64,000 bases of DNA from Thermotoga sp. (GTDB lineage: Bacteria > Thermotogota > Thermotogae > Thermotogales > Thermotogaceae): assembly GCF_021162145.1 (NCBI RefSeq), contig NZ_JAGGZH010000014.1:44147-108146 (forward strand), in the 5' to 3' direction. Of the stretch, positions 2,777 to 59,700 are shown one piece after another; the first letter of the stretch is position 1; the number at the start of each line of letters is the position of its first letter. A program made the position numbers and the translations under genes. Under the pieces are notes generated by a model that was not told the origin of the DNA, ran no database searches, and saw only the letters and a program-made list of their open reading frames with translations.

Positions 2777-3690
2777 AGATAGCCATAATAGGAGGCCCCA
2801 CCGCCGTTGGGAAAACGGACCTTATGGTAGAAGTGTGTGAGGAGATAAACGCGGAGATTGTATCGATGGACTCAAGGCAAATCTACCGCTACATGGACAT
2901 AGGAACGGCCAAGCCAACACCGGAGCAGAGAGAAAGGGTACATCACCACATGATCGACATACTGGATCCCGATAAGTACTACAACGCGTTTCTTTACAGA
3001 GAAGACTCGTTGAAAACTGTGGAGGATATCCTCAGGCGTGGAAAGATACCTGTCTACGTGGGTGGGACGGGGCTTTATGCAGATGCCCTCGTGAGGGGTA
3101 TATTCGAAGGGGTGCCTGCAGACGAGAACATAAGAAAGGAACTGAGGGAGCTTGAAAAGAGAGAACCAGGGATCCTGAGGAAGATGCTCGAAGAATTCGA
3201 CCCGGAAGCGGCAACGCGCATTCATCCGAACGATCTCAAAAGGACCATCAGAGCGCTCGAGGTTTACATGAAAACGGGAAAGAGGATATCCGAGCTTCAA
3301 AAAGAGGCGAGGGGAGACGACAGGTTCTTCATAATAGTGTTGACAAGGGAAAGATACGATCTTTACGACAGGATAAACAAAAGGGTGGACAAGATGATTG
3401 AAATAGGTTTCATAGACGAGGTGAAGAAACTTCTGGAAATGGGATACTCGAAGAACCTCAATTCGATGAAGACCATAGGCTACAAAGAGGTGATCGAATA
3501 CCTGGAGGGAAAGTACGATTTCGAAAAGATGGTTCATCTTATAAAGAGGAACACGAGGCATTTTGCAAGAAGACAGATTATCTGGTTTAAGAGGTACGAA
3601 AGTGCCGTGTGGTACAATTTAACTTTCATGAACAGAGAAGAGTTAAAGAGGACTCTCAAAGAGCTGATAATGAAGAACTTTTCGGTATAA
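2773..3690 (+). CDS. miaA: tRNA dimethylallyltransferase
   Basis: P-loop IIGGPTAVGKT, then VSMDSRQIYRYMDIGTAKPT and YVGGTGLY. It lies immediately upstream of hfq, as in many bacteria. Confidence 0.95.
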   Translation: MKIAIIGGPTAVGKTDLMVEVCEEINAEIVSMDSRQIYRYMDIGTAKPTPEQRERVHHHMIDILDPDKYYNAFLYREDSLKTVEDILRRGKIPVYVGGTGLYADALVRGIFEGVPADENIRKELRELEKREPGILRKMLEEFDPEAATRIHPNDLKRTIRALEVYMKTGKRISELQKEARGDDRFFIIVLTRERYDLYDRINKRVDKMIEIGFIDEVKKLLEMGYSKNLNSMKTIGYKEVIEYLEGKYDFEKMVHLIKRNTRHFARRQIIWFKRYESAVWYNLTFMNREELKRTLKELIMKNFSV

Positions 3691-3737
3691 TCTATAATAA
3701 TCTATATTTGAATCTCACATTGAGGGGGGAGTTCACC

Positions 3738-4010
3738 TTGGCAGAAAAGTTCAACCTTCAAGACAGATTTCTGAACCACCTCAGGGTCAACAAAATCGAG
3801 GTGAAGGTATACTTGGTGAACGGTTTTCAAACAAAGGGGTTCATCAGATCTTTTGACAGCTACACGGTTCTTCTGGAGAGTGGAAACCAGCAGAGTCTCA
3901 TCTACAAACATGCCATCAGTACTATCATACCTTCATCCTATGTTATGTTGATGCCCAGAAAACAGGAACCAACGAAGGAGGCTGAAACCTCTGAAAACCA
4001 GGGATCTTGA
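3738..4010 (+). CDS. hfq: RNA chaperone Hfq
   Basis: A TTG start at 3738 follows the GAGGGGGGAG RBS. The translation (M)AEKFNLQDRFLNHLRVNKIEVKVYLVNGFQTKGFIRSFDSYTVLLESGNQQSLIYKHAISTIIP carries the Sm1/Sm2 motifs. Confidence 0.95.
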   Translation: MAEKFNLQDRFLNHLRVNKIEVKVYLVNGFQTKGFIRSFDSYTVLLESGNQQSLIYKHAISTIIPSSYVMLMPRKQEPTKEAETSENQGS

Positions 4011-44098: not shown

Positions 44099-45471
44099 AA
44101 AAAATATACCTCTTCTTCACGCTCGAAGGTTTCTTTTCGCTGTTCTACATCTTGCTCACTCAGGGTCCCATCTTCACGGGACTTGCTATGTTTTTCAACC
44201 TGGATGAATTCCTTCTGAGTCTGACTGCTGCCATTCCTCCCATGATGCAGTTTTTCCAGCTTTTTGCCACCTTCTTTGTCCGGAGATACAAAAAGAGAAG
44301 ACTCCTTGTAAACGTGTTCAACGGTCTCAGCAGATTTGCGTTCGCATCTCTTCTGGTGTTCATTCTGCTTGGCAAGAAGATTCCGCTGGTGTTCATCGTT
44401 ACTCTTGCCATCTCGCAGTTCTTTGCCGCATTTTCCGGTAGCACGTGGGCATCATGGATGAGAGATCTGATACCCGCCGGGGAGAGGGGAAAGGCTTTCG
44501 GTACGAGGAACATGTTCCTCTCCCTTGGTAACGCTTTCATCATATATCTGTACTCGTTACTCGTGGACAATTTTTCTCATGGTTTCGAGATGGTTCTTCT
44601 CATCTCTGTTGCTGGAACGATTCTCTCGATACTGTTTATGAACAAGATCCCGGATGTTCCCATGAAAATGTCCGGAAGCGGGATTCCCATGAAGGTGATT
44701 TTAAAGGACAACAACTTCATGAAGCTTGTTTTCTTCACACTCTACTGGAACATGGCGGTAACCTTTTCCAGTGCTTTCTATCATTATCATCTTTTGAAGA
44801 ACCTCGGTATAAGTTACACTTACATAAGCTATATGATGATCATGAACAACTTCGTTGCCGTGTTGGGATACAGAATATGGAGAAAAGTTTCTGACAGAGT
44901 TGGGCACAGAACCGTGGCAGAGTTCGGAATCGCCCTTGCTGCCTTTGTTTCCGGAGTATGGTTTTTCATGAACGGTGCTACTTACTTTCATCTTCTGATC
45001 GTCGATGCTGTGCTCTCGGCTGTGGCCTGGTCGGCGATAAACCTTTCTCTCACTGTGCTTCCCATGGAGGTTGCTTTCGAATCCGATCCCATCTTCTTCG
45101 GGGTAAACGCCTCAGCTGCCAGCCTTGGAAGTCTTGCAGGTTCGTTCGTGGGAGGCCTCACCGCAAAGTTTCTCTCGGGAGTGTATGTAAAGGTGCATGG
45201 TTTCGAGGTTTTTGGTCTTCAGATCCTTTTTCTGATGGCTGCTGTTTTCAGGCTTTCTTCGGTCTTGCTACTGAGGAGGGTGAAAGTGAAAAAATACATT
45301 CCGCTCAGAGAATTCGTATTCAACACGGTGTTTGTTACACTGAGAAAACCGGTGTACAGGGTCTTCGAGAAAACGTACGTATCTTATTTGCTGAGAAGAG
45401 GTGGTGAGCGTGTACGAAAGATTGTTGAAAGATCTAAAAGAAGGAAGAGTGATTCTGACGAACAAGGTTGA
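44095..45471 (+). CDS. MFS transporter
   Basis: A 458-aa protein with about 12 TM helices, an MFS-like loop 2-3 motif (RRYKKRRLL) and a basic C-terminal tail. It is ATGA-coupled to the preceding gene. Confidence 0.85.
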   Translation: MKKIYLFFTLEGFFSLFYILLTQGPIFTGLAMFFNLDEFLLSLTAAIPPMMQFFQLFATFFVRRYKKRRLLVNVFNGLSRFAFASLLVFILLGKKIPLVFIVTLAISQFFAAFSGSTWASWMRDLIPAGERGKAFGTRNMFLSLGNAFIIYLYSLLVDNFSHGFEMVLLISVAGTILSILFMNKIPDVPMKMSGSGIPMKVILKDNNFMKLVFFTLYWNMAVTFSSAFYHYHLLKNLGISYTYISYMMIMNNFVAVLGYRIWRKVSDRVGHRTVAEFGIALAAFVSGVWFFMNGATYFHLLIVDAVLSAVAWSAINLSLTVLPMEVAFESDPIFFGVNASAASLGSLAGSFVGGLTAKFLSGVYVKVHGFEVFGLQILFLMAAVFRLSSVLLLRRVKVKKYIPLREFVFNTVFVTLRKPVYRVFEKTYVSYLLRRGGERVRKIVERSKRRKSDSDEQG

Positions 45472-45532
45472 AGACAGGACAAGCGGCATGACGATCGGAT
45501 GGGGTTCTTCGGTATCAGAGATCTCGAGTGAT

Positions 45533-45763
45533 ATGGAAGGAATCTTTTTGAAGCGAAAAAGCAAGTTTACGGGACTCGTTCTTGTGGATGGTGTGGAAAG
45601 TTGAACACAAAGGAGAGTTTGTCTCCACCCTCTCTGGTTACCATAACGCTGTTGCAAGGCAAATTCTCGAAGAGGTTTTCCCGGTTCCGAAATACCCCAG
45701 GAGAAGAAGTTTGGTAGCAGGTTAGACTTTCTGATAGATGGCAGAGTTTGTGTTGAGGTGTGA
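45533..45763 (+). pseudogene. sfsA: decayed sfsA (sugar fermentation stimulation protein) remnant with internal deletion and frameshifts
   Basis: Three frames each carry an SfsA-like piece. These are MEGIFLKRKSKFTGLVLVDGVE (N-terminal OB strand), HKGEFVSTLSGYHNAVARQILEEVF (central NT..AN.L.EEA region) and FGSRLDFLIDGRVCVEV* (the R-x-D-F-L...EVK motif). Stops separate them. Confidence 0.45.
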
Positions 45764-45843
45764 ATGTTCGCGTGTTCAGGTTAAAATAAAATGGAGAGTA
45801 TCTGCACTCGATGGGGCAACTTCCGATCTGCAGGGAGGTGTAG

Positions 45844-46041
45844 ATGATGGAGAATCCTACGATTGAGCAGCTTGTGAAGAGGTATGTGGAAATCAGAAAC
45901 CTCATGAAGGAACTCAGGGCAGAGAAGAGAGAAATCGAAGAAGTTCTGAGGGAGTACGCAAAAAGAACCGGCATCAAAGAGTTCGAAGCGGAAGGAAAGA
46001 AGGTCTTTTTTGAAGAAAAACTCAGTTTGAAGGTAAAATGA
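45844..46041 (+). CDS. hypothetical small protein (65 aa, predicted helical/charged)
   Basis: GGGAGGTG lies 3-6 nt before ATG 45844/45847. The ORF ends at the hairpin at 46041-46059. I recognise no family. Confidence 0.5.
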   Translation: MMENPTIEQLVKRYVEIRNLMKELRAEKREIEEVLREYAKRTGIKEFEAEGKKVFFEEKLSLKVK

Positions 46042-46059
46042 GCCCGCATAAGGCGGGCT
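46041..46059. terminator. shared hairpin between convergent small ORF and Rrf2 gene
   Basis: AGCCCGC-ATAAG-GCGGGCT fills the gap between the two stop codons (46039-41 and 46060-62) exactly. Confidence 0.5.
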
Positions 46060-46476
46060 TCACATCTGTTTCAACTTCTCTTCCTGTTCTTTCACGAGAT
46101 CTTCCAGAGTGACACTACCGAGCACTCTCTCTATTTCATTTTCCACTCTCTTCCACAGCGATCTGATGACACAATTCAACTCGTCCGGGCAACCCGGCAT
46201 ATCGAAGAACACTTTGGCTTTCCTGTCCAGGAGGAAGATGATATCGGACACTCTTATCTCCTTTGGAGGGCGTGCAAGCATGTACCCGCCGCTTTTACCC
46301 CTTTTTGTCTTCACCATTCCTGCCCTTCTCAGAATGTAAAGAATCTTTTCAGCAAATTCCCGGGGAACGGATTCCCTTGTCCTGTTCAAAATCTCCGTCA
46401 CGGAAAGGTAACGGCCGTACTCTTTTGCCAGCACAATCATAAGTCTCAGGGCGTACTCACTTTTCATTGTGAACAC
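46060..46476 (-). CDS. Rrf2-family transcriptional regulator
   Basis: MKSEYALRLMIVLA...LSVTEI.......P..FAEKILYILRRAGMVKTKRGKSGGY is a typical Rrf2 winged helix. There is only one Cys pair region (CPDELNC). Confidence 0.9.
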   Translation of the reverse strand: MFTMKSEYALRLMIVLAKEYGRYLSVTEILNRTRESVPREFAEKILYILRRAGMVKTKRGKSGGYMLARPPKEIRVSDIIFLLDRKAKVFFDMPGCPDELNCVIRSLWKRVENEIERVLGSVTLEDLVKEQEEKLKQM

Positions 46477-46477
46477 G

Positions 46478-48136
46478 TCAATCCCTCCAGACGAAAACCC
46501 TCGACGTGATCTTCCGGTTGTGAAGAGCTTCCCTTATACTGTCGAGATAGACGTCGATCTTTTTTCCCTTTATCACCCCCCCTATGTCCTCCACGACGAA
46601 GATTCCCCCGCTCGGTGTGTTTCTGAGTTCGGGAATGTAAAGGACAGACCCCAGTGGGAATATTGTCGTATCGGCTGCCACCGTTCTCCATTCCTCTGGT
46701 ATTTTCCCGGATTTTGTGAGCCTGAAGGCAGGATGCTCTGGAAGTTTTCCATCTTCCCACTCTGTGTAGAAGCTGATCTCGAATTCTCCCATGTTCGAAA
46801 AGAACAAAAACATGGGATCTTTCGGCTCACCTTCCACGTAGAGCTCAAATTCTACGTTGCTGCCCCCGTATCCGATTGTGTCTCCTGCACTCACCCAGTC
46901 ACCGACGTTGACTGTCACCATGGAGAGATTCCTGTACACGGTCTCCACGTCGTTCCCGTGGTACACAACGACCGTTCCATTCTTCACGCTCTTTACTCTT
47001 CCCGGTAGCGCGGCTTTTACTTTCTGACCAGAGCTTTCCAGCACAACTCCCGAAGAGAACGAACCGTCCGATTTCAATCCAAAGCCAGCGACCACGATCT
47101 TCGGATCTGGTTTCTCACCCACCGGAAAACTCGCCCTCAAATTCGTTACAGGGACCTTTATGATCTGTCCTGCTATGAGTTTCCTGGGATCCTCTATCCC
47201 GTTGAGTTTCATGATCTTCTCCACTCCGTCAGGTCCCAGGTTGAAGGCATCGCTGATCTTTGCGAGGGTGTCTCCCCGTTCCACTCTGATGAAGACGTAC
47301 CCTTCTTCGATTCCAAGAATTCGAGCTATCTCGTAACTTCTGACCAGTCTTCTGAACTCGTCCAGATATCTCTTCAGCTGCTGGGTGTATATCTCTGGAT
47401 TCATATCCACAAGCTGGGGGGTATTTCTCATCTCCCGTACTATCTGCTCCAGATTCTTTTGGCCACTTTCCAGCTGTGAGACTTTCTTTTCTATCTGCTC
47501 GATGCGATTTTTGATTTCGTCACTTGTGGTGTACACGATCGTTGCTTTGGTTTCGCTTTGTGACAGCACGCGCAGAGCCACTTTCGAGAGAAGCTTTTCC
47601 GAGCTTTCCAACCTTTTCTCTATCTCGTCCACACGTGAAGAGCCCCTCTCCAGTGAAGAAACTCTCTCTTCCAGATCAAGAAGGATGTGCTTGAGATCTT
47701 CCGAGGGCGTTGAAGAATTTCCAAGGGTGGCTATGTCCATCTTCCTCTCGAGTTCTGAGACCTTCGTTTTCAGATCTTCCAATTCAGACAGCAGGGAGGC
47801 TGCCTCTTCTATGGTGGGGAGCTTCATGGAAATTGTGTAGTAGCTACTTTTGAGTTCATCCACTCCGGTGCGAAACTCTTCCTGCAGAGAAGAGAGATCT
47901 TCCTTCAGGTACTCCATCTCTCTCTTCAACAACTCTATTTCCTTTTGGGAGGAATCCTGAGTTTTGATTCTAGCTTCAAGATCGTCGATCTTTTTCTCCA
48001 GAAGATCCATGTGGGCGTTGATCTGTCTGATCTGCTCCTCCATTCTGTTCAGTTTTTCCTTCCATTCAGAGGGCACACACGCTCCAAGAAGTATCAGTAT
48101 CAGAAGGAAAATCATGACCTTCTTAAGTCTTGCCAT
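46478..48136 (-). CDS. lipoprotein with coiled coil, LysM, degenerate LytM(M23) and 3D domains (EnvC/NlpD-like)
   Basis: Signal plus lipobox MARLKKVMIFLLILILLGAC, followed by about 230 aa of coiled coil. LysM is RGDTLAKISDAFNL....IMKLNGI.DPRKLIAGQIIKVP. The M23-like fold lacks the HxxxD and HxH ligands (YHGNDVETVYRNL and GGSNVEFELYVEG). The C-terminal 3D domain is TVAADTTIFPLGSVLYIPE....GIFVVEDIGGVIKGKKIDVYL. Confidence 0.85.
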   Translation of the reverse strand: MARLKKVMIFLLILILLGACVPSEWKEKLNRMEEQIRQINAHMDLLEKKIDDLEARIKTQDSSQKEIELLKREMEYLKEDLSSLQEEFRTGVDELKSSYYTISMKLPTIEEAASLLSELEDLKTKVSELERKMDIATLGNSSTPSEDLKHILLDLEERVSSLERGSSRVDEIEKRLESSEKLLSKVALRVLSQSETKATIVYTTSDEIKNRIEQIEKKVSQLESGQKNLEQIVREMRNTPQLVDMNPEIYTQQLKRYLDEFRRLVRSYEIARILGIEEGYVFIRVERGDTLAKISDAFNLGPDGVEKIMKLNGIEDPRKLIAGQIIKVPVTNLRASFPVGEKPDPKIVVAGFGLKSDGSFSSGVVLESSGQKVKAALPGRVKSVKNGTVVVYHGNDVETVYRNLSMVTVNVGDWVSAGDTIGYGGSNVEFELYVEGEPKDPMFLFFSNMGEFEISFYTEWEDGKLPEHPAFRLTKSGKIPEEWRTVAADTTIFPLGSVLYIPELRNTPSGGIFVVEDIGGVIKGKKIDVYLDSIREALHNRKITSRVFVWRD

Positions 48137-48765
48137 CTTTCTCTCCCCACTTTCGCGTACACAGATTCCCTGTGCTTCCTGAGGAGAACCTCGTACCATC
48201 TTGCGGCTTCCTTCCTGTTGCCAAGGAGTTGATTCAGCACCCCCAGGTAAAAGAGTATCATGGGCTCGTCTGACTCTTCGTAGTGGTCGTATTTGAAGTG
48301 ATTTTCAAACTCTCTTAAGGCTCGCTCAAGGTAGTGCTTTTCGTCCTCAGGCCTTCCTATTTCTCTGAAAAGCCAGGCGATTTTGAGATAGGAGAGTGCC
48401 ACCTTCTTTCTTTGATTCAGAACAGAGTACACAATCCCACTCAGGGCATACCGTTTTATCGCTTCTGTATGCGTTTCCTCGTCCTTCAATTTGACCTTCT
48501 TTTTGGCTTCTTCAAGCAGCTTTTTAAGTCTCCTCTCCGTTTCTTCACCTTTTACTCTGATAGATTCGAAATCTTTGCCGAACGCGGAAAAGTAACAATT
48601 CGGACACGTCACCACTTCATACAGAAACGGATTCACAGTTTCGAAGTTCGGCTTCAGATCGATATCTCTTGACTTGATTCTTACTGCGTCGAAAAAGACC
48701 ATCTTTTTCTTGAACCTGTTCCCGCAGAGAGGGCACGTAAACTCCTTTTCCCAGAACGTCCTCAT
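48112..48765 (-). CDS. DUF2225-like zinc-ribbon/TPR protein
   Basis: CPLCGNRF....VVTCPNCYFSAF is a split zinc ribbon, followed by a helical TPR-like region. This layout resembles DUF2225. Confidence 0.65.
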   Translation of the reverse strand: MRTFWEKEFTCPLCGNRFKKKMVFFDAVRIKSRDIDLKPNFETVNPFLYEVVTCPNCYFSAFGKDFESIRVKGEETERRLKKLLEEAKKKVKLKDEETHTEAIKRYALSGIVYSVLNQRKKVALSYLKIAWLFREIGRPEDEKHYLERALREFENHFKYDHYEESDEPMILFYLGVLNQLLGNRKEAARWYEVLLRKHRESVYAKVGRERWQDLRRS

Positions 48766-49646
48766 TCGGAGAGAAGCACCTCCACGAATGTGTGTGGGTC
48801 GAACGGTTTCAAGTCGTCTTCTTTTTCACCGACCCCCACAAATTTTATAGGAATTCTCAGCTCTTTCGCTATAGCAAGGGCAATTCCACCCTTTGCAGTG
48901 CCATCAAGTTTGGTGAGGATGATTCCCGTGACATTCACCGCATCTTTGAACACTTTCGCCTGGACCAGTCCGTTTTGACCCGTAGTGGCGTCGATCACGA
49001 GGAGAGTTTCATGAGGTGCATCAGGTACCTTTTTTCTCACTACCCTGTGTATCTTCTTCAACTCCTCCATGAGATTTTTCTTTGTGTGAAGCCTTCCGGC
49101 GGTGTCTATTATCACCACGTCTTTGTTTCTGGCAAGAGCATGGGAGACGGCATCAAAGGCAACCGCGGCCGGATCCGAGCCTTCAGAGTGAGCTATCACC
49201 GTGGCACTGACGCGCTCTCCCCAGAGTTTGAGCTGTTCTATGGCAGCAGCCCTGAAGGTATCGGCCGCCGCCAGCACAACGCTCTTTTTCTGATCGGAAA
49301 AGATCTTGGCGAGCTTTGCACAGGAGGTGGTCTTCCCTGTTCCGTTCACACCGACCACGGTTATCACGAAGGGGGGCTTGTTCGGTTCGTTCACGCTGGT
49401 ATCGAAGCTCAGGATCTCAAGGAGCGTTTCTCTCAAAGCTTCTAAGGCGTCTCCATCCTTTTCCTCGAGCCTTTCCAGGATGTACTCCGTTGTTTCGATG
49501 CCAACGTCTGCCTGAATGAGAAGTTCTTCGAGTTCTTCGCGGGTTTCATCGTTCAGTTTCTTTCCTTTGAGAAGGTTCACCACCTTTCCAAAGAACGTAT
49601 CCTTCGTTTTCTGAAGGCCCCTTTTCAGGAAGTCAAAGAGTCTCAT
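48762..49646 (-). CDS. ftsY: signal recognition particle receptor FtsY
   Basis: MRLFDFLKRGLQKTK, the NG domain with VVGVNGTGKTTS, DTAGR and TKLDGTAKGG. Confidence 0.95.
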   Translation of the reverse strand: MRLFDFLKRGLQKTKDTFFGKVVNLLKGKKLNDETREELEELLIQADVGIETTEYILERLEEKDGDALEALRETLLEILSFDTSVNEPNKPPFVITVVGVNGTGKTTSCAKLAKIFSDQKKSVVLAAADTFRAAAIEQLKLWGERVSATVIAHSEGSDPAAVAFDAVSHALARNKDVVIIDTAGRLHTKKNLMEELKKIHRVVRKKVPDAPHETLLVIDATTGQNGLVQAKVFKDAVNVTGIILTKLDGTAKGGIALAIAKELRIPIKFVGVGEKEDDLKPFDPHTFVEVLLSE

Positions 49647-49762
49647 CTTTTCTACCTCCCGGTTTTTTTCCATCAGTATTAAGCATACCACACGTTTTTG
49701 AACCGCCCGGAGAAGACGTGTGTCTAAGAAACCGGAAACCTCACCGAAGGAGGGATGAAAAA

Positions 49763-51145
49763 ATGAAGAGATTGCTTGTAATCATCGCATCGATAGTCCT
49801 TCTCTCCAGTGTTTTTCCGTACGTCAATCCCGATTACGAAAGTCCTATCGTGAAAGTTGTGGAAGCGTGTGCACCGGCTGTTGTGAAGATAGATGTAACG
49901 AAAACGGTGAGAACATCTTTCTTCGATCCCTATTTTGAAGACTTCTTCAAGAAGTGGTTTGGAGAACTCCCTCCAGGTTTTGAAAGACAGGTTTCCAGCA
50001 TCGGTTCGGGGTTCATTTTCAACTCGGAAGGCTACGTTCTCACCAATTACCACGTGGTTGGAAGTGCTGACAACATCACTGTGACTCTCCTGGATGGAAG
50101 CAAATACGACGCGGAATACATAGGTGGCGATGAAGAACTGGATATAGCAGTTATAAAGATCAGGGCTTCAAACAGAGAGTTCCCGTATCTGGAGTTCGGT
50201 GATTCCGACAAGGTGAAGATCGGTGAGTGGGCAATAGCGATAGGAAATCCCCTTGGATTCCAGCACACGGTGACTGTGGGTGTGGTCAGCGCCACGAACA
50301 GAAAGATACCAAAACCCGATGGAAGCGGGTATTACGTGGGACTCATCCAGACAGACGCTGCGATAAATCCTGGAAACAGCGGAGGCCCTCTCTTGAACAT
50401 CCACGGTGAAGTAATTGGAATAAACACCGCCATAGTCAATCCCCAGGAAGCTGTGAACCTTGGGTTTGCCATACCCATAAACATGGTGAAGAAGTTTCTC
50501 AACACCATACTCACTCAGAAAAAAGTTGAGAAGGCCTACCTTGGTGTAACTGTCATGACCCTCACGGAAGAAACGGCAAAAGCGCTCGGCCTCAAATCCA
50601 CGAGCGGAGCTCTCATAACGAGTTTGCAGAAGGGATCGCCTGCTGAAAAGGCTGGCCTCAAAGAAGGAGACGTGATCCTCAAGGTCGATGACCAGGATGT
50701 GAGGAGTCACGAAGAGCTGGTTTCCATCATACACACTTACAAACCAGGAGACACCGCCGTTCTCACCATAGAGAGAAAGGGAAAGATCATGAAGGTTCAG
50801 GTAACGTTTGGTGCTTCTTCTGAAGCAGAAAAGACAACAGCAACAGGTGAAGAGACGATAGGCATTCTCGGTATCACGGTGGCCAACATTACACCGGCAG
50901 ACAGAGAAACCTACTCGATCCCGGAGGAGGTCCATGGAGTCATAGTAAGGGAAAGCGGTGGAAGGTTTGGTATCCGGAAAGGAGACATTATCGTTGCGGT
51001 GTACATAAACGGAAGAAAGTATGATATAAATTCAGTGGAAGATCTCAAGAAAGCTGCCTCGAAAATAAAGAGGGGCGACTACGTTGCTTTGTACATCTAC
51101 AGGAATGGTGCGAGGGTGTTCGTGAGCTTCATCTATCAGAGATAG
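49763..51145 (+). CDS. htrA: HtrA/DegP-family periplasmic serine protease with PDZ domains
   Basis: Signal peptide MKRLLVIIASIVLLSS, the catalytic residues TNYHVV, DIAVIK and GNSGGPL, and two PDZ-like segments. Confidence 0.95.
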   Translation: MKRLLVIIASIVLLSSVFPYVNPDYESPIVKVVEACAPAVVKIDVTKTVRTSFFDPYFEDFFKKWFGELPPGFERQVSSIGSGFIFNSEGYVLTNYHVVGSADNITVTLLDGSKYDAEYIGGDEELDIAVIKIRASNREFPYLEFGDSDKVKIGEWAIAIGNPLGFQHTVTVGVVSATNRKIPKPDGSGYYVGLIQTDAAINPGNSGGPLLNIHGEVIGINTAIVNPQEAVNLGFAIPINMVKKFLNTILTQKKVEKAYLGVTVMTLTEETAKALGLKSTSGALITSLQKGSPAEKAGLKEGDVILKVDDQDVRSHEELVSIIHTYKPGDTAVLTIERKGKIMKVQVTFGASSEAEKTTATGEETIGILGITVANITPADRETYSIPEEVHGVIVRESGGRFGIRKGDIIVAVYINGRKYDINSVEDLKKAASKIKRGDYVALYIYRNGARVFVSFIYQR

Positions 51146-51186
51146 AGAAACCTCCCCTCAATGTCAATAAAGCCCCCTGCGGTGGT

Positions 51187-51214
51187 TCCCCCTCCACTGG
51201 AGGGGGATTTTTTT
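51187..51214 (+). terminator. rho-independent terminator of htrA
   Basis: TCCCCCTCC-ACT-GGAGGGGGA followed by TTTTTTT. Confidence 0.7.
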
Positions 51215-51217
51215 GAT

Positions 51218-52590
51218 ATCACAGGAAACTCGAGCCGTGGAGCTCCACATCCTTCAGGGTGTTGGGAGGAAACGGCTCAGTTCACTTCTTTTTTTGTTAA
51301 TATATGACTGAGGAGGCCACAAACCTGTGAAAGTAACCCTCTCCTGCAAGTTTAAATTGGAACTCTTGAAGGAGCAAAAACAATCATTGCTCAATCTAGC
51401 AAAGGCTTACACTCAAGCCATCAATTTTGTGCTAGCAAATAATCTCAAAGACAAAACAACTAATCTCAGAAAACTGCATAACCTGTACTACAAAACAACT
51501 CAAAGCGAATTCAATTTGCCTTCGCAATTTGCCATTAACGTCGAACGAGAAGCTATTGCCATTTATCAAACGCTCTGGACACAGCTTAAGGGGCTAAAAC
51601 GAAGAAAACCAGATTCGAAAGCCGTGAAGAAATTCTGGAACAAGCCGCCACAACGCAAAGCCCTGACTGTCAGGTACACACGAAACCGCACCGCCTCATT
51701 CAAACTGATAGATAACAACTGGTATGTTTCTCTCAGCACACCAGAAGGACGTATCAAGTGGATTCGAATGTACGGCTGGAACAGACACTATGAGCATCTG
51801 AAACAGGGAAAGATCGGAGATCCCATATTGAGCTACGACAAATCGTCCAAAACATTCTTTTTAATAGTTCCTGTGACCATTGAGGTTGAAGAGCACAAAC
51901 CACAGGAGATCGTCGTGGACATCGGAGAGCGGCACATCGTCGCGGTTGCGCCCACAAAGGGCGACAGGTATCTTGTCGATCTTTCTGAAGAGTTCAAACG
52001 AAGAAAACAACACTATCAGCATCTGCGCTCTGAGCTGATGTCAAAAGGCACTCGTTCTGCTAAGCGAAAGTTATCTAAGCTTAGCAGACGAGAGAAACGG
52101 TTCACTGAAAATGTCCTGCACATCGTGGTAAAACAGCTTATCGAAAGACACCCCCATACCAGGTTCGTCTTAGAGGATCTGACCAAGATTTGGTCAAACC
52201 GCATCACCTATCGTGGCAAAGACAAAGAGGCAAGACGTCAGGCAGAGCCGTGGCCTTTTGCCAGTCTTCAGCAAAAGATTGAGTACAAATCGATGCTGTA
52301 TTCTGGAGAGGATGCAGAGAAAGTCGATCCAGCATACACATCTCAAACCTGTCCGGTATGTGGTCATGTATCAAAAGAGAATCGTCCTAACCATGGTGAA
52401 GCGTTTGTATGTCAAAACTGTGGTTATGAAGAGCACGCTGACATAGTTGGAGCAATCAACATAGCCTTGAGGATATCTGCCAAAGACCATTCTGAACACC
52501 TCAGAGAGCTGCTTGTCAGCCAGCCTGTTGCTCCCTCTTTTGAGGTCGAGCAAGCTTTCCTACTTCAGAGGGAGAGTAGCTGACAGAAGC
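51218..52590 (+). mobile_element. IS200/IS605-family element carrying tnpB only (IS1341-like); boundaries approximate
   Basis: A tnpB ORF with no tnpA. The left flank ends in TTGAT after the htrA terminator. There is a structured left end (12-bp palindrome within a 7-bp stem) and a nested stem-loop at the right end. Codon usage looks more A/T-rich than in the neighbours. Confidence 0.6.
51327..52583 (+). CDS. tnpB: TnpB (IS605 OrfB-type RNA-guided endonuclease family)
   Basis: A GAGGAGG RBS lies 9 nt before GTG 51327. RuvC-I is IVVDIGERHIVAV and RuvC-II is RFVLEDLTKIW. TSQTCPVCGH...FVCQNCGYEEHADIVGAINIA holds the zinc ribbon plus RuvC-III. Confidence 0.9.
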   Translation: MKVTLSCKFKLELLKEQKQSLLNLAKAYTQAINFVLANNLKDKTTNLRKLHNLYYKTTQSEFNLPSQFAINVEREAIAIYQTLWTQLKGLKRRKPDSKAVKKFWNKPPQRKALTVRYTRNRTASFKLIDNNWYVSLSTPEGRIKWIRMYGWNRHYEHLKQGKIGDPILSYDKSSKTFFLIVPVTIEVEEHKPQEIVVDIGERHIVAVAPTKGDRYLVDLSEEFKRRKQHYQHLRSELMSKGTRSAKRKLSKLSRREKRFTENVLHIVVKQLIERHPHTRFVLEDLTKIWSNRITYRGKDKEARRQAEPWPFASLQQKIEYKSMLYSGEDAEKVDPAYTSQTCPVCGHVSKENRPNHGEAFVCQNCGYEEHADIVGAINIALRISAKDHSEHLRELLVSQPVAPSFEVEQAFLLQRESS

Positions 52591-52602
52591 GAGGTGGGAG
52601 CG

Positions 52603-53754
52603 ATGATACCACTTTCCAGACCGGATATAACAGAAGAAGATATAGAAAGAGTCGTGGAGGTCCTGAAAAGTGGCAGGTTGAGTCTGGGAAATTACACCAG
52701 GCAATTTGGCGAAGTCGTGGCTCGATATGTAGGAGCAAAATACGGGTGGCCCGTCAGTAGTGGAACCGCTGCCCTCCATCTCATACTGGAGAGCCTGAAC
52801 GTTGGTGAGGGAGATCTTGTTCTTGTACCCTCTTTCACCTTCATAGCTTCCGTGAACGTCATTCTCATGAAAAGGGCAATTCCCGTCTTTGTGGATGTGG
52901 ACAGAAAGACTTTGAACGTCTCTCCCGAGACACTTGAAGACGCCATCGGAAGGTGTCTGAAAGGATTCAAACAAGGAGATGTTTATATAAAGGGTGTCCC
53001 TCAATTCTTTATGGCAGTGGATGTGTTTGGCCATCCTCTCGACTGGGACGGAGTGCTGGAAATCTGCCACAGATACGGAATCATCGTGATGGAAGACTCA
53101 TGTGAGGCACTCGGCTCAGAATACAAAGGAAAAAAGATAGGAACTTTCGGTATGGCAGGGGCTTTCGCTTTCTATCCGAACAAACAGATCACCACCGGTG
53201 AAGGCGGTGTCGTTGTGACGGACAGCGAGCAAATCTTTTCCCTTGTAAAGAGCATGAGCAATCAAGGAAGGGGAGAAGATGAAAAATGGCTGCATCACGT
53301 GAGATTTGGCTACAATTACAGGATCGATGAAATGTCCGCAGCGCTGGGTTGCTCGCAAATGAAGAGAATCGACGAGATATTGGAGAAACGTTCAGAGGCG
53401 GCGAACAGATACTCGAGGATGTTGAAAGGCACCTCATGGGTTCAAATTCCAGCTGTCGAGGACTACGTGACCAGGATGAGCTGGTTCGTTTACGTGATCA
53501 GGTTGGACGGTCCCAACAGAGATCGTGTCATGAAATACATGGAAAAGAGGGGTGTACAGGTGAGAAATTACTTCCATCCCGTTCATCTTCAACCCTTTTA
53601 CGAGAAGACGTTTGGAAAAATGAAAGGTCTTTTGCCTGTAACGGAAGAAGAGTCTGGAAAGACACTCGCTCTTCCTTTCTTCACGAGGATATCTCCCGAC
53701 GAACAAAAATGTGTGGTGGAAACCCTCAGGGAGGCGGTGGAGAAAGTTGGCTAG
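52603..53754 (+). CDS. DegT/DnrJ/EryC1/StrS-family PLP-dependent aminotransferase
   Basis: MIPLSRPDITEEDIERV, SSGTAALHL, DSCEALG and the PLP lysine region FAFYPNKQITTGEGG. A GAGGTGGGAG RBS precedes ATG 52603. Confidence 0.9.
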   Translation: MIPLSRPDITEEDIERVVEVLKSGRLSLGNYTRQFGEVVARYVGAKYGWPVSSGTAALHLILESLNVGEGDLVLVPSFTFIASVNVILMKRAIPVFVDVDRKTLNVSPETLEDAIGRCLKGFKQGDVYIKGVPQFFMAVDVFGHPLDWDGVLEICHRYGIIVMEDSCEALGSEYKGKKIGTFGMAGAFAFYPNKQITTGEGGVVVTDSEQIFSLVKSMSNQGRGEDEKWLHHVRFGYNYRIDEMSAALGCSQMKRIDEILEKRSEAANRYSRMLKGTSWVQIPAVEDYVTRMSWFVYVIRLDGPNRDRVMKYMEKRGVQVRNYFHPVHLQPFYEKTFGKMKGLLPVTEEESGKTLALPFFTRISPDEQKCVVETLREAVEKVG

Positions 53755-55183
53755 CTTTCTCCTCAGTGTTCTGTCGGGCATTCTTACTTCTCTGTCGATG
53801 CCCGGGTTCCTATCCGGAGCTTTGATCTGGTTTTCCATGGTACCTCTTTTCTTCGCTATGGAGCGGGGGGGAATCTGGAAAAAAGCGTTCCTTTCCTTTT
53901 TTTACTTCTTCACACATGTTCTGATCACTTTCTTTTGGGTTCTTCCAACCCTGACGGAAAATCTTCCCCTTGTTTTTGGAAGGTACCCGTCGTGGCTTGG
54001 TGTTGTGGTGTTTTTCTTGATGGGCGTCATAGAAGCTGCTCCGTTTTTCGGTTTCGGGTTCTTTTCTCACTTTGCACCACGTGGAACTTTCTTGAGACCG
54101 CTATATCTTGCATCCATCTACACGATCTTTGAATACATTCGCGGGATCGGTGAACTGGGGTTCACGGGGGGGAGGATCTCCGATGCTCTGTTCAGGCACC
54201 TTGGTCTTATCCAGGTTATCTCCATCACGGGGACGTTGGGGCTTGTTTTTCTGATAGTCTTTCTGAACGCCCTTTTCTACGAGCTGTTAAAGAGAAGAAA
54301 AACATCCGTCATTTTCACGGTGATCACTTTCCTGTACATTTTTAACGCCACGATAGTGCATCTTCTTCCGCTTCCGGAGAGCGGAACGTTCGAAATAGTG
54401 GCTCTTCAACCCAGCATTTCCCCTTCTTTGAAATACTCCACATCAAGCAGGGAAATGCTGAAGCTTCTTGAAGAGATGTTGAAAGGAAGAGAAGGTCAGG
54501 TTGTGATTACCCCCGAGGCGTTCTTCCTGGAAGACGTCAGATACTCGCCCGTTTCGAGCAACTTGAGAGAGATTTCGAAGAAAAACACGATCATCATTGG
54601 TTTTCCAGCCGGTGAAAAAAACAGTGTTTTCTTACTGGAGAACGGAACGTTCAAAAGAGTGTACTCGAAGGTGAAACTCTTTCCGTTCGTGGAGACGCTC
54701 CCGTATCCGAAAGTCTTTGGAATTTTCAGCTTTTTGAGAGGACTTTCCTATTATGAACCTGGTGAAGAATTTTCTGTCTTCAGCGTAAATGGGAGTCCCA
54801 CGTTTTCCATCGGGATCTGTTTTGAGAGTTATTTTCCGGAGGTGTCACGCAAATTTGTAAAGAACGGCAGCGAGTTCCTTGTGACCGTAACGAACGACGG
54901 CTGGTTTCATTACAGGGTGGCACTGTTGAACCACTTTGTTCAGGGAGTCTTCAGGGCTGTCGAAACGAGAAGACAATTCCTTCAAGTTGCAAACACGGGC
55001 ATTACTGGATTGATAGATGAGTACGGTAGAATCCTCAGAGTGCTTCCGATGGAAAAAAAGTCTCTGGGACTCTTTCGTGTAAAGCCGAGGAAAGAAGAGA
55101 CTTTCTACGTGAGATTCGGAGATTGGTTCTTCTACCTCTCGATTCTCCTTGGAGGACTCACCTGGATACTGGCAAAGCTGTGA
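53747..55183 (+). CDS. lnt: apolipoprotein N-acyltransferase
   Basis: An N-terminal polytopic region plus a C-terminal CN-hydrolase domain (ICFESYFPE catalytic Cys, VTNDGWF). The start is TTG 53747 or ATG 53711, overlapping the degT end. Confidence 0.85.
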   Translation: MASFLLSVLSGILTSLSMPGFLSGALIWFSMVPLFFAMERGGIWKKAFLSFFYFFTHVLITFFWVLPTLTENLPLVFGRYPSWLGVVVFFLMGVIEAAPFFGFGFFSHFAPRGTFLRPLYLASIYTIFEYIRGIGELGFTGGRISDALFRHLGLIQVISITGTLGLVFLIVFLNALFYELLKRRKTSVIFTVITFLYIFNATIVHLLPLPESGTFEIVALQPSISPSLKYSTSSREMLKLLEEMLKGREGQVVITPEAFFLEDVRYSPVSSNLREISKKNTIIIGFPAGEKNSVFLLENGTFKRVYSKVKLFPFVETLPYPKVFGIFSFLRGLSYYEPGEEFSVFSVNGSPTFSIGICFESYFPEVSRKFVKNGSEFLVTVTNDGWFHYRVALLNHFVQGVFRAVETRRQFLQVANTGITGLIDEYGRILRVLPMEKKSLGLFRVKPRKEETFYVRFGDWFFYLSILLGGLTWILAKL

Positions 55184-55193
55184 GGTGATGATT

Positions 55194-56201
55194 GTGAAGG
55201 TCTCGGAGTTCGACTACGAACTTCCATCGGAGCTCATCGCACAGGAGCCGGCAGAACCACGTGACTCCTCACGCCTCATGGTTCTTTACAGAGAAACGAA
55301 AAGGATAGTGCACCGGATATTCCGTGAAATAGTGGAATATCTGGAGCCTGGTGACCTTCTTGTTCTGAATGTTTCAAGGGTGATTCCTGCGCGCCTCTAC
55401 GCGAGAAAGAAAACAGGTGCGCGCATAGAAATACTCCTTCTTGATCGACTGAAAGAAGGTGTCTGGCGATGTCTTGTGAAGCCCGGCCAGAAAGTGAAAA
55501 AAGGAACCGAATTGCTGGTGGACGAGGAACTATCAGCAACCTGTCTTGAAAGAGGCGAAGATGGAACAAGAATCCTGGAGTTTCAACCAAAAAACGACAG
55601 ATTCATTCTCGAAAAAGGAAAACCCCCGCTTCCCCCCTACATAAAGAAGGAAGTTCCACTGGACAGATATCAAACTGTCTACGCGAGAGAAGATGGATCC
55701 GTTGCGGCACCGACCGCTGGCCTTCACTTCACACAGGAGTTGATTGAAAGGCTGAAAGAAAAGGGAGTTGAGTTTGCAGAGGTTGTTCTTCACGTTGGAA
55801 TAGGAACCTTCAGACCTGTGAAGGTAGAAGAAGTGGAAAAACACAGAATGCACGAAGAATACTACCGGGTGCCAAAAGAAACCGTCAAGAAGATTAGGGA
55901 AACGAAGAAAAGAGGGAAAAAAGTTGTGGCGGTTGGAACCACGACCGTGAGGACTCTGGAGACGATAGCTCGACTTCCTGAGCAGGAGGAATACGCAGGA
56001 AAGACGGATCTTTTCATATACCCACCTTTCGAATTCAGGATGGTCGATGCACTGATCACGAACTTTCATCTTCCTCGCTCAACCCTTCTCATGCTGGTTG
56101 CGGCGTTCGCTGGAAAAGACTTCATCATGGAAGCCTACAGGGAAGCGGTGAGAAAGAGATACAGATTCTTCTCTTTCGGCGATGCGATGCTGATTTTGTA
56201 G
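55194..56201 (+). CDS. queA: S-adenosylmethionine:tRNA ribosyltransferase-isomerase
   Basis: (V)KVSEFDYELPSELIAQEP..PRDSSRLMV, PPYI, AAPTAGLHFT, VGTTTVR and TNFHLPRSTLLMLV. Confidence 0.95.
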   Translation: MKVSEFDYELPSELIAQEPAEPRDSSRLMVLYRETKRIVHRIFREIVEYLEPGDLLVLNVSRVIPARLYARKKTGARIEILLLDRLKEGVWRCLVKPGQKVKKGTELLVDEELSATCLERGEDGTRILEFQPKNDRFILEKGKPPLPPYIKKEVPLDRYQTVYAREDGSVAAPTAGLHFTQELIERLKEKGVEFAEVVLHVGIGTFRPVKVEEVEKHRMHEEYYRVPKETVKKIRETKKRGKKVVAVGTTTVRTLETIARLPEQEEYAGKTDLFIYPPFEFRMVDALITNFHLPRSTLLMLVAAFAGKDFIMEAYREAVRKRYRFFSFGDAMLIL

Positions 56202-56282
56202 CGATTTGGAAAACACGACTTTCTCTTAAACGGAAGGTATAAAAACCGAAAATATGTGAGCAGTATAATGGAGGTTAGGCGG

Positions 56283-56780
56283 TTGAGAATCCTCGGTGTT
56301 GATCCCGGATATGGAATAGTCGGAATAGGTGTCATCGAGATCTCTGGAAACAGAATATCCCATGTCTTTCATGGGGTGATAGAAACTTCCAAAGATCTTC
56401 CCCGTGGGAAGAGATTGAAGCAAATATACGAAGAGTTTGTAAGGATCCTGGACACGTTCTCTCCCGATGAGTGTGCTTTGGAAAAGCTGTTCTTCGTCAA
56501 AAACGTTACCACGGCTATAGGTGTTGGAGAAGCGCGTGGGGTGATTTTCCTCGCTCTGGAGGAAAAGAACGTTCCCGTCTTCGAGTACGCCCCGAATGAG
56601 GTGAAAATTTCTCTGACGGGGTATGGAAAAGCGAGCAAAAAGCAGATCCAGGAGAACGTAAAGCGCTTTCTTGGACTTTCAAAACTTCCCCAACCCGATG
56701 ATGCTGCAGATGCCCTTGCCATTGCATGGTGTCACGCCCTTCAGAGCAGAATGAGGAGGGTAACACATGGGAAAGATTGA
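56283..56780 (+). CDS. ruvC: crossover junction endodeoxyribonuclease RuvC
   Basis: (L)RILGVDPGYG, EKLFF and DAADALAIAWCH. TTG 56283 lies 8 nt after GGAGG. The longer ORF from 56256 would contain that RBS. Confidence 0.9.
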   Translation: MRILGVDPGYGIVGIGVIEISGNRISHVFHGVIETSKDLPRGKRLKQIYEEFVRILDTFSPDECALEKLFFVKNVTTAIGVGEARGVIFLALEEKNVPVFEYAPNEVKISLTGYGKASKKQIQENVKRFLGLSKLPQPDDAADALAIAWCHALQSRMRRVTHGKD

Positions 56781-59700
56781 AAACCTGCGATGGAAAAACA
56801 TCTCTTTGAAGAGCCTGGAGATTGATCCTGACTCCGGCGTTGTGACCATATCCGTTGAAAACTACTCCGACGAAATAGAAGAGCTCGCTCGGTCTCTGGA
56901 AAGAGAAACGAAATTTCGAGTTGTTGTGAACGGACGCCATCGCGGCACGACCTGGGATCTGAAGGAAAAAATCCTTTCCATCCTGAATGGGAATGTTCCC
57001 TACATAAAGGATGTTGCCTTTGAGGGAAACAGACTCATATTGAAAGTTCTGGGTGACTTTGCCCGCGAAAGAATTGCTGCAAAACTCAGAAGCATGAAGA
57101 AGGGCTTGGATGAGATTCTCCCCACTGGCACACAGATCATGCTGGAAGTCGTTGAACCGTCCGAGGACTTTTTGAAGAAAAATCCCTTACAGACAGAGTC
57201 AGCGAAAAATGAGAAGGAACCAGAAGGCGAGGAAGTGAAGGTCGAAAGCAAAAACCATGTGTTCGGGCAGAAACCAAGAAAGATCGTCTTCACTCCTTCG
57301 AAAGTGTTTGAGTACAACAAAAAGACCTCTATAAAGGGAAAGGTCTTCAAGATGGAGAAGGTGGACGGCAGAAAAACGGTTCTTCTACTCTACCTCACAG
57401 ACGGAGAGGACTCTCTTATCTGTAAAGCTTTCAGTGGCATTGAAGAGATAGAAAAGAACGTAGCAATAGGTGATGTCGTCGTCGCAACAGGAGATCTGTT
57501 CCAGGAAAACGGAGAGCCCGTTCTCTACGTGAGGGGGTTGACGAAACTCCCTGAAGAGAAAAGAATGGACAACGCTCCTGTGAAGAGGGTGGAACTGCAC
57601 GCCCACACCAAGTTCAGTGATCTCGATGCAATAATGGATGTTGAAGAGTACATCAATCGTGCAAAGGAATGGGGCTTTCCAGCTGTAGCAATCACAGACC
57701 ATGGAAACGTTCAGGCGATCCCTTATTTCTACGACGCTGCAAAGAAAGTCGGGATAAAACCCATATTTGGAATAGAGGCCTACCTTGTGAGCGATGTGGA
57801 ACCTATTTTGAGGAACTTCTCTGGTAGTGCAACATTTGAAGATGTTACCTTCGTCGTTCTCGACTTCGAGACAACCGGTCTTGATCTTCAGGTGGACGAG
57901 ATCGTCGAGATAGGAGCGGTGAAGATAAAAGAAGGGCGGATCGTCGATGAGTACCATACACTCATAAAACCTTCCAAAGCCCTTTCCGGAAAGAGTTCTG
58001 AGATCACGGGTATCACTCAGGAGATGCTTGAAGGAGAAAGAAGCATTGAAGAGATCCTACCAGAGTTTCTTGAGTTCCTAGAGGATTCCATCCTCGTTGC
58101 CCACAACGCGAACTTCGACTACAGGTTTTTGAGGCTCTGGATCAAAAAGGTGCTCAAGAAAGATTGGGAAAAACCTTACGTTGACACCCTTGCCCTCGCT
58201 AAATCCCTTCTGAGGTTGAAGAGTTACTCTCTTGATTCTGTTGTGAAAAAGCTTGGCCTTGGTCCATTTCGCCATCACAGGGCACTGGACGACGCGAGAG
58301 TCACTGCCCAGGTGTTTCTCAGATTCGTGGAGATGATGAAAAAGATCGGTATTACAGAGCTATCTGATATGGAGAAACTGAAAGGTTCTGTGGATTTCAC
58401 TGCGCAAAAACCCTATCACTGTACGATACTCGTTCAGAACAAAACAGGGCTGAGAAATCTCTACAAACTGGTCTCCGATTCCTACACGAAGTACTTCCAC
58501 AGCGTTCCAAGAATTCTGAAGAGCGAGTTGATCGAAAAACGAGAAGGATTGATCGTGGGGAGTGCCTGTGTATCTGGAGAACTCGCGCGTGCAGCACTTG
58601 AAGGAGCCAGTGATTCCGAGCTCGAAGAAATAGCAAAATTCTACGATTACATAGAGATCATGCCTCTGGACGTTATAGAGGAGGACGAGGAAGATGTTGA
58701 CAGAGAAAGACTCAAGGAGGTCTACAGGAAACTCCATAGAATCGCCAGAAGGCTGAACAAACCGGTCGTTATGACGGGAGACGTTCACTTTCTGGATCCC
58801 GAGGATGCGAAAGGACGTTCTGCACTCCTTGCTCCCCAGAACAGAAACTTCGGAAAACAACCTGCCCTCTATCTCAGAACAACAGACGAGATGTTCGAAA
58901 AAGCGATGGAAATATTCGAAGACGAAGAAATAGCAAGAGAAGTGGTTATAGAAAATCCCAACAAGATAGCTGAGATGATAGAAGAGATCCAGCCTCTTGA
59001 GAAGCAACTTCATCCACCCGTCATAGAGAATGCCGACGAGATCGTGAGGAATCTCACCATGGAAAGGGCTCATAAACTCTATGGGAACCCGCTTCCTGAC
59101 ATTGTCAAAAAGAGAATAGAGAGGGAGCTCGACGCGATAATAAACCATGGTTACGCCGTTCTGTATCTCATAGCAAAAGAACTCGTTCAGAAATCCTTGA
59201 GCGATGGTTACGTTGTTGGATCGAGAGGTTCAGTTGGTTCTTCGCTGGTTGCCCATCTTCTTGGGATCACCGAGGTGAACCCGCTTCCTCCTCATTACCG
59301 ATGCCCCAAGTGTAAGTACTTTGAGATAGTGGAAAACGACAGGTATGGGGCGGGTTATGACCTTCCAAGCAAGAACTGTCCAAGGTGTGGAACCTCTTTG
59401 AAGAAAGACGGACACGATATACCGTTCGAGACGTTCATGGGCTTTGAGGGAGACAAAGTGCCCGACATAGACCTGAATTTCTCCGGAGAATATCAGGAGC
59501 GGGCACATCAATTCGTCGAAGAGCTCTTCGGTAAGGACCACGTGTACAGAGCCGGGACGATAAACACCATAGCAGAAAAAAGTGCCGTGGGCTATGTGAA
59601 AAGCTACGAAGAAAAGACAGGAAAAAAACTGAGAAGGGCAGAAATGGAAAGACTTGTTTCCATGATCACGGGGGTGAAAAGGACAACCGGGCAACATCCA

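Follow-up and report, generated by a model that had tools for sequence, protein, structure and literature searches.

What is a lone tnpB gene doing between htrA and degT in a Thermotoga genome? The window analyzed here, a 64,000-nucleotide stretch of one Thermotoga contig, contains such a gene, which a preliminary description made from the sequence alone took for a solo tnpB of the IS200/IS605 family, recently acquired and possibly still active. The answer that we consider very probable is that positions 51223 to 52584 constitute an insertion sequence that is not autonomous and belongs to the tnpB-only IS1341 type of the IS200/IS605 family; it carries an omega-RNA module and looks like a stranded copy. 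The family assignment and the solo state of tnpB are borne out, empty sites in related genomes show the insertion, and covariation supports the omega-RNA. The coordinates of the features are collected in Table 1.

Table 1. Features of the tnpB element and its immediate surroundings (positions in the window)
Feature	Position	Strand	Description
htrA intrinsic terminator	51187..51214	+	9-bp GC-rich stem (51187-51207) and T run to 51214; outside the element
TCAC, target/transposon-adjacent motif (TAM)	51219..51222	+	directly 5' of the left end
Whole element	51223..52584	+	1362 bp, ends ±2 nt; junctions aligned with empty sites L017 and L020
Left-end subterminal hairpin	51227..51282	+	outer stem GAGCCG/CGGCTC; inner hairpin CACATCC-TTCA-GGGTGT
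Putative tnpB promoter and RBS	51295..51316	+	extended -10-like TGTTAATAT (51295-51303); GAGGAGG (51310-51316)
tnpB ORF	51327..52583	+	GTG start, 418 aa
Missing GGA (Gly) codon	between 51914 and 51915	+	3-bp deletion relative to L001
RuvC residues	D198 51918-51920; E283 52173-52175; D372 52440-52442	+	invariant alignment columns
CCCC zinc finger	52350-52421	+	four Cys invariant in the alignment
Omega-RNA scaffold and right end	52504..52584	+	81 nt; four elements: P1, P2, P3, pseudoknot
P1 hairpin loop GUCAGC	52515-52520	+	pairs with GCUGAC at 52579-52584 (last six nt), forming the pseudoknot
P2	within 52504-52584	+	UGCUC/GAGCA with variable inner hairpin
P3 (terminal, right-end hairpin)	within 52504-52584	+	compensatory changes
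Predicted guide (right flank)	52585..52600	+	AGAAGCGAGGTGGGAG; degT 5' leader including the Shine-Dalgarno sequence (52591-52600)

Is the gene part of a mobile element at all? The htrA-degT intergenic region, reached in other genomes via DegT homologs, provides the answer in the form of empty sites in T. neapolitana (L017) and in a second Thermotoga (L020-23). The window and these loci have nine syntenic genes in common, LysM/M23, DUF2225, ftsY, htrA, degT, lnt, queA, ruvC, and polC, and in the empty-site loci just 96 bp separate htrA from degT. Because the same synteny surrounds a 96-bp gap, the element is an insertion and its ends are fixed. In the junction alignment (slashes mark the junctions), the empty site reads ...TTTTGATATCAT/AGAAACGAGGTG..., or GATATCAT/AGAAACG in short, with ATCAT/AGAAAC in T. 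neapolitana. The left junction reads GATATCAC/AGGAAACTCGAGCCG... (GATATCAC/AGGAAAC) and the right junction ...GTAGCTGAC/AGAAGCGAGGTGGGAGCGATG (...AGCTGAC/AGAAGCG); similarity to the copy in Thermotoga sp. RQ2 (L004) ends at the same ...AGCTGAC. AG is present at both junctions, which is why each end carries an uncertainty of 2 nt in either direction. The preliminary description was thus correct in placing the element between htrA and degT, but the limits that it gave, 51218 and 52590, are really 51223 and 52584. A repeat search of the element found neither target-site duplication nor terminal inverted repeats, and no deletion scars were seen at the empty-site loci in the junction alignments. 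The htrA terminator, called by a terminator scan, has the same hairpin in L017 and L020, where the site is empty.

Judged from these alignments, the insertion arose in this Thermotoga's lineage after the split from T. neapolitana, in keeping with the proposed acquisition. How recent is it? Its recency is only relative, since a metagenome contig (L001) has the same insertion at 98.7% identity, with a dS of ~0.024 between the two copies. The tetranucleotide directly 5' of the left end is TCAC in the window and in C. bescii (L105) and TCAT in L004, L024, L108, and L026, which makes six independent loci in which TCAY (TCAC or TCAT) stands ahead of the left end. TCAC is also the published TAM of AmaTnpB, the TnpB of Alicyclobacillus macrosporangiidus (PMC10278001).

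The profile searches place the protein in the family without difficulty. Its translation matches the Pfam families Cas12f1-like_TNB (1.8e-20) and OrfB_IS605 (1.9e-7) as well as the NCBIfam model guided_TnpB (NF040570, 4e-51, residues 8-381), with the Pfam and NCBIfam matches above their cutoffs. Like the IS1341-type members of the family, the window element has a single tnpB ORF, subterminal imperfect hairpins at its two ends that take the place of terminal inverted repeats, and a fixed tetranucleotide 5' of an insertion that is not flanked by a target duplication; the 1362 bp between its ends hold tnpB alone, with no internal tnpA. A 36%-identical relative, P0052, bears the source name "transposase, family IS1341." NCBI/UniRef already lists the protein (P0241). 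No description of the element itself was found in the literature searched, and none of the 4227 Rfam models matched it when positions 45000-58000 were scanned at E<=1. A weak match to sR49 inside htrA was put down to chance.

A quite different possibility is that the gene is not part of a mobile element but a vertically inherited chromosomal gene or a CRISPR-type effector (Cas12f). Structure lends it some color: the best matches to the predicted TnpB structure are Cas12f proteins, headed over the full length by AsCas12f (PDB 8DZJ; TM 0.69, E 8.5e-20), a protein of similar size with 17-19% sequence identity, followed by ISFba1 TnpB and ISDra2 TnpB (TM 0.56/0.63). There is also a partial NCBIfam match to Cas12f2, and a 72%-identical paralog occupies one fixed locus in the T. 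petrophila/RQ2 group. However, the Cas12f2 match (NF049972) scores 85, far under the cutoff of 450, and the window contains no CRISPR array, tracrRNA, or tandem repeats; unlike that of Cas12f, the guide would be set by the transposon flank. On these grounds an identity as Cas12f or a type V-F CRISPR system was rejected. The empty sites in close relatives rule out vertical inheritance and contradict conservation of the gene at this locus in all relatives, and hairpins and a TAM mark the defined ends of the element. Codon usage, which had been described as unlike that of the flanking genes, speaks against this reading too. The synonymous-codon log-likelihood of tnpB is -1.207, whereas 34 genes of the window average -1.055 (sd 0.039). 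This makes tnpB the most atypical of the 35 (z -3.9, below all 34), and its GC3 is 0.484 versus 0.552. We give a chromosomal gene or CRISPR effector next to no credence.

The insertion sequence brings with it a left end of the expected kind. The DNA hairpin there folds at -13.3 kcal/mol (z -3.2), and not one of 200 shuffles was equally stable. The same architecture, with compensatory changes in the outer stem, recurs in L004 (the 72%-identical RQ2 copy), L024, L105, and L108. Such left-end hairpins are of the type bound by the TnpA transposase on single-stranded DNA. The two hairpins of any one element, left and right, resemble one another, as expected of TnpA recognition sites. Downstream of the left-end hairpin, the window and the RQ2 copy have TGTTAATATAT in common; at the promoter position, other relatives carry TGATAAAAT or TTGACA-N18-TATAAT. 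The tnpB promoter is termed putative because a scan for sigma-70 consensus -35/-10 elements did not call the left-end box. The ribosome-binding site GAGGAGG, which tnpB was said to have for itself, is present.

What of the other end? The last ~25 to 30 codons of tnpB overlap a structured RNA scaffold that finishes at the right-end boundary, and this RNA holds up well under comparison. Among the 9 sequences of the near clade, 93% of cells are paired, versus 33 to 51% in slid controls; 13 of 25 pairs have changed in a compensatory way, and none of 500 shuffles reaches the observed score. A covariance model built on these 9 sequences finds the scaffold at 52504-52584 with 86.4 bits (E 1e-21). The next best match in the window scores 13 bits; the match that finishes on the junction base is therefore the sole real one. 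Outside the window, each matched locus yields one full-length match to the model immediately 3' of tnpB. Of these loci, 52 are distant and lay outside the training of the model, and their proteins are 33 to 39% identical; the empty-site loci yield no match. Across 61 relatives, the omega-RNA is 96% paired, against 0/500 shuffles.

The pseudoknot, formed by nucleotides adjoining the guide, is absent from the model. Its helix (alignment positions 12-17/225-230) is nevertheless 97.5% paired in the 61 sequences. Pair 16-226 occurs as GC 31 times, AU 17 times, and GU 12 times, and the terminal pair has undergone GC to AU and UA changes (pair types GC/AU/GU and UA/AU/CG/UG); in the 61-sequence alignment, even the very last base of the element covaries. 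The window omega-RNA has the second-best score of all the loci, with a perfect pseudoknot and one A-C mismatch at the base of the P1 stem. The single-sequence minimum free energy of the 3' region is no better than that of shuffles (z -0.38), and support for the RNA rests on covariation. The guide module appears intact.

Could the 3' region be conserved simply as protein? Conservation by coding alone was rejected, being contradicted by the compensatory pairs and by variable stop positions: the L001 stop follows KDQ, that of the RQ2 copy falls within the right-end hairpin, and the window ORF remains open to the last base. As protein, the overlapping codons are not conserved. The DNA behind the GLLVSQPNAP/VEQA stretch also specifies the P1 hairpin and the loop of the pseudoknot, and the conservation of the stretch may for that reason be largely an RNA constraint.

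In ISDra2 and AmaTnpB, the guide consists of the 16 to 20 nt directly 3' of the right end (PMC10097598, PMC10278001). By analogy, the guide of the window omega-RNA would be the leader of degT, whose ATG is at 52603. The first 12 nt of this predicted guide have a sole exact match in the window, their own site, where they are preceded by TGAC and not by TCAY.

How would such an element move? A tblastn search found no second tnpB in the 64-kb window, and a Pfam scan of 31 small ORFs in the window gave no strong Y1_Tnp match, in accord with the earlier statement that no tnpA lies there. The copy thus looks stranded. The situation is not peculiar to the window, as ~80 related loci have no conserved neighboring gene and no adjoining Y1 TnpA. 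From the lack of a conserved neighbor it follows that this is a tnpB-only clade whose movement must rely on a Y1 TnpA supplied in trans.

The state of the catalytic site is less straightforward. The preliminary description had listed a 418-codon ORF with the motifs VVDIGE, VLEDL, CPVCGH...CQNCG, and HADIVGAINIA, all of which are present in the translation, and had judged them intact. The residues of the RuvC triad and the zinc finger are present: D198, E283, and D372 as well as the four Cys do not vary across 29 aligned sequences, and the window TnpB has them all. For RuvC-I, the judgment goes too far. Where L001 (98% identical) and all homologs have IVGVDIGE with the Gly/Ala position filled, the window protein has IV-VDIGE, an in-frame 3-bp deletion relative to L001 having dropped the Gly two residues ahead of D198. 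Of 113 homologs, 108 have Gly at this position and 5 have Ala. In AlphaFold (AF2) models built on the same 29 sequences with the query order swapped, mean pLDDT is 81.0 for the window TnpB and 88.2 for its Gly-containing twin; for residues 191-200 it is 59 versus 90, and the twin is modeled with longer strands around these residues. Because the deleted residue is a conserved Gly beside the catalytic Asp198, the nuclease is of doubtful competence. Sequence and models are suggestive here, not proof, and activity is uncertain.

Might this nonetheless be a fully active OMEGA module, that is, a competent thermostable RNA-guided nuclease that still defends or propagates its element? The complete triad and zinc finger, the high-scoring scaffold with its perfect pseudoknot, and the open reading frame would all fit. 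So would a dN/dS of 0.14 against the sister copy in L001. Together with a value of ~0.09 against the RQ2 copy (where dS is saturated), it indicates purifying selection on the TnpB family, which agrees with the stranded insertion sequence as well. (The tnpB copy in L024 carries an in-frame stop.) Against full activity are the Gly deletion itself, the loss of confidence in the adjoining strand, the absence of TnpA within 64 kb, and the occurrence of the exact protein on only one contig in the collection. Weighing these, we regard a fully active module as possible but rather unlikely; the suggestion that the element is still active is weakened accordingly by the Gly deletion and by the lack of TnpA in the window, although triad and zinc finger speak for it.

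How does the stranded insertion sequence compare with better-known systems? Like the window protein, ISDra2 TnpB of Deinococcus radiodurans (PDB 8H1J/8EXA) has a RuvC D-E-D triad and a CCCC zinc finger, and the 3' end of its tnpB is shared with the omega-RNA, which finishes at the right end. In the ISDra2 omega-RNA a pseudoknot is built from the nucleotides immediately 5' of the guide, and the protein can do without its C-terminal tail (PMC10097598). The window pseudoknot mirrors the former, and the variable stop positions are consistent with the latter. In contrast to the window element, ISDra2 has tnpA, a TTGAT TAM, and a 116-nt scaffold with four stems, and its TnpB is too distant for detection by phmmer at E<0.01. 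AmaTnpB, compared by description, has a TCAC TAM, as found at the left end of the element studied here, and a processed scaffold of 106 nt versus 81 nt in the window. Its RuvC site cuts the omega-RNA from its own mRNA, trimming on the 5' side only and tolerating extra 3' sequence (PMC10278001), which is the situation to be expected in the window, where degT follows the guide. Among IS1341-type relatives, the 3' RNA measures 75 to 89 nt in the window clade versus ~127 nt in the 33- to 39%-identical relatives.

A further comparison is with P0002, the 72%-identical TnpB of Thermotoga sp. RQ2, T. naphthophila, and T. petrophila, which NCBI names an RNA-guided endonuclease InsQ/TnpB family protein. 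It, too, is solo, and its element shares the left-end hairpin, the -10-like box, and the omega-RNA with the window copy; its TAM is TCAT. The locus differs, tnpB lying between 12TM_1 and ABC_tran-Vut_1-QueF, and so does the protein, which has the canonical GVDVGE and is found in identical form on 41 contigs. The window element is in sum a further example of a known family, and its OMEGA module is canonical, if compact.

How might the parts work together? The element inserted 3' of TCAC without target duplication, in the gap that separates the htrA terminator from the ribosome-binding site of degT. If it behaves like ISDra2 and AmaTnpB, its left-end promoter would yield a tnpB mRNA that TnpB would cut 5' of the scaffold, and the 16 to 20 nt past the right end, in the degT leader, would serve as the guide. 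The resulting complex would cut a TCAY-flanked empty copy of the site, and recombination would restore the element. The transposition step itself would require a Y1 TnpA in trans.

What does the insertion mean for degT? The element cuts degT off from all upstream sequence, and a terminator scan found no terminator-like site between tnpB and degT, as had been claimed. Since no terminator follows the right end, it is plausible that transcription borne by the element would run into degT. It is also conceivable that the element has been exapted, its nuclease being dispensable, and is kept either as the promoter and leader of degT-lnt-queA-ruvC-polC or for a modulation of degT by binding of TnpB/omega-RNA to a leader that contains its Shine-Dalgarno sequence. 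In T. neapolitana, no consensus promoter was called on the plus strand of the empty 96-bp intergenic region, the guide segment is the Shine-Dalgarno region of degT, the same insertion has been kept in two samples, and the ORF has stayed open though a nuclease motif is damaged. These features are, however, indistinguishable from those of a neutral recent insertion with just two near-identical carriers known, and the relatives of the element lie in unrelated contexts. The catalytic triad is kept, moreover, unlike in known nuclease-dead TnpB-like repressors, and an identity as a nuclease-dead repressor of the TldR type was ruled out by it. Exaptation in this broad sense strikes us as unlikely.

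A more specific version would have transcription from the left-end promoter through the omega-RNA act as the expression signal of degT-lnt-queA-ruvC-polC. Because the guide is the Shine-Dalgarno region of degT, binding or processing by TnpB, its nuclease possibly weakened, would then couple the biogenesis of a transposon RNA to translation of the host operon. To this co-option we assign a slimmer chance still, and the stranded insertion sequence remains by far the preferred explanation.

Overall, the window offers a cleanly delimited tnpB-only insertion sequence from Thermotoga, a genus of hyperthermophiles. Its empty site is known exactly, its TAM is TCAY, and its compact scaffold measures 81 nt. 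Anyone in search of thermostable miniature editors should turn to the Gly-intact L001/P0001 and the RQ2-group P0002, not to the window copy; the biotechnological lead, if any, is in these Gly-intact relatives. Biologically, the insertion is an ordinary one, and its sole unusual aspect is its position on the leader of a housekeeping operon.

Where does degT begin? The open reading frame as listed starts at a TTG codon at 52513 and overlaps the right end of the tnpB element and its omega-RNA; this start was rejected, as comparison with the empty-site genomes places the true one at ATG 52603, which is preceded by the Shine-Dalgarno sequence GAGGTGGGAG. Within codons 1 to 8 of degT (window 52606-52625), just past the presumed guide, lie five clustered synonymous differences from L001, the metagenome contig with the same insertion. 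Across this stretch the window matches T. neapolitana exactly. The mechanical start of another listed frame, that of the Hfq-domain protein, is probably too far upstream. A weak match to the archaeal C/D-box family sR49 of Rfam at 50126-50178, scoring 23 bits (E 0.31) where the gathering score is 50, falls inside the htrA coding region and was dismissed as a chance match.

L001 is otherwise about 99% identical to the window outside one divergent stretch, 52467-52510, with the part that encodes RuvC-III on one side and the omega-RNA scaffold on the other. In these ~45 nt there are about 13 differences, three of them 1-nt indels, and L001 has gained a TAG stop (KDQ*). The L001 version is similar to the RQ2 paralog, and the stretch may be either a patch left by gene conversion or a linker under no constraint.

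Features in the window and related tnpB loci
Feature	Location	Remarks
Hfq-domain ORF	window 3609-4010	133 aa; Hfq domain from residue 50
degT ORF as listed	window 52513-53754	TTG start at 52513
Solo tnpB, 72% identical	L002-L011, e.g. L004 5001-6230	one fixed locus
tnpB copy, 71% identical	L024 1451-2695	in-frame stop codon
Distant tnpB relatives	L027-L103, e.g. L062 3698-3824	33-39% protein identity; mostly metagenome contigs

The 72%-identical copy, carried by Thermotoga sp. RQ2, T. naphthophila, T. petrophila, and related metagenome bins, lies between a 12TM_1 membrane-protein gene on one side and ABC_tran-Vut_1-QueF on the other, and the identical TnpB protein is present on 41 contigs. It represents an older insertion, now fixed, by a member of the window element's IS clade. 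The L024 tnpB is likely a pseudogene, yet despite its in-frame stop, its omega-RNA region received the top covariance model score (87.8 bits).

The distant relatives share with the window clade a common frame of P1, pseudoknot, and P3. Their scaffolds carry an additional domain of ~45-70 nt within P2, bringing the total to about 127 nt, compared with 75-89 nt in the window clade, whose scaffold is a minimised version.
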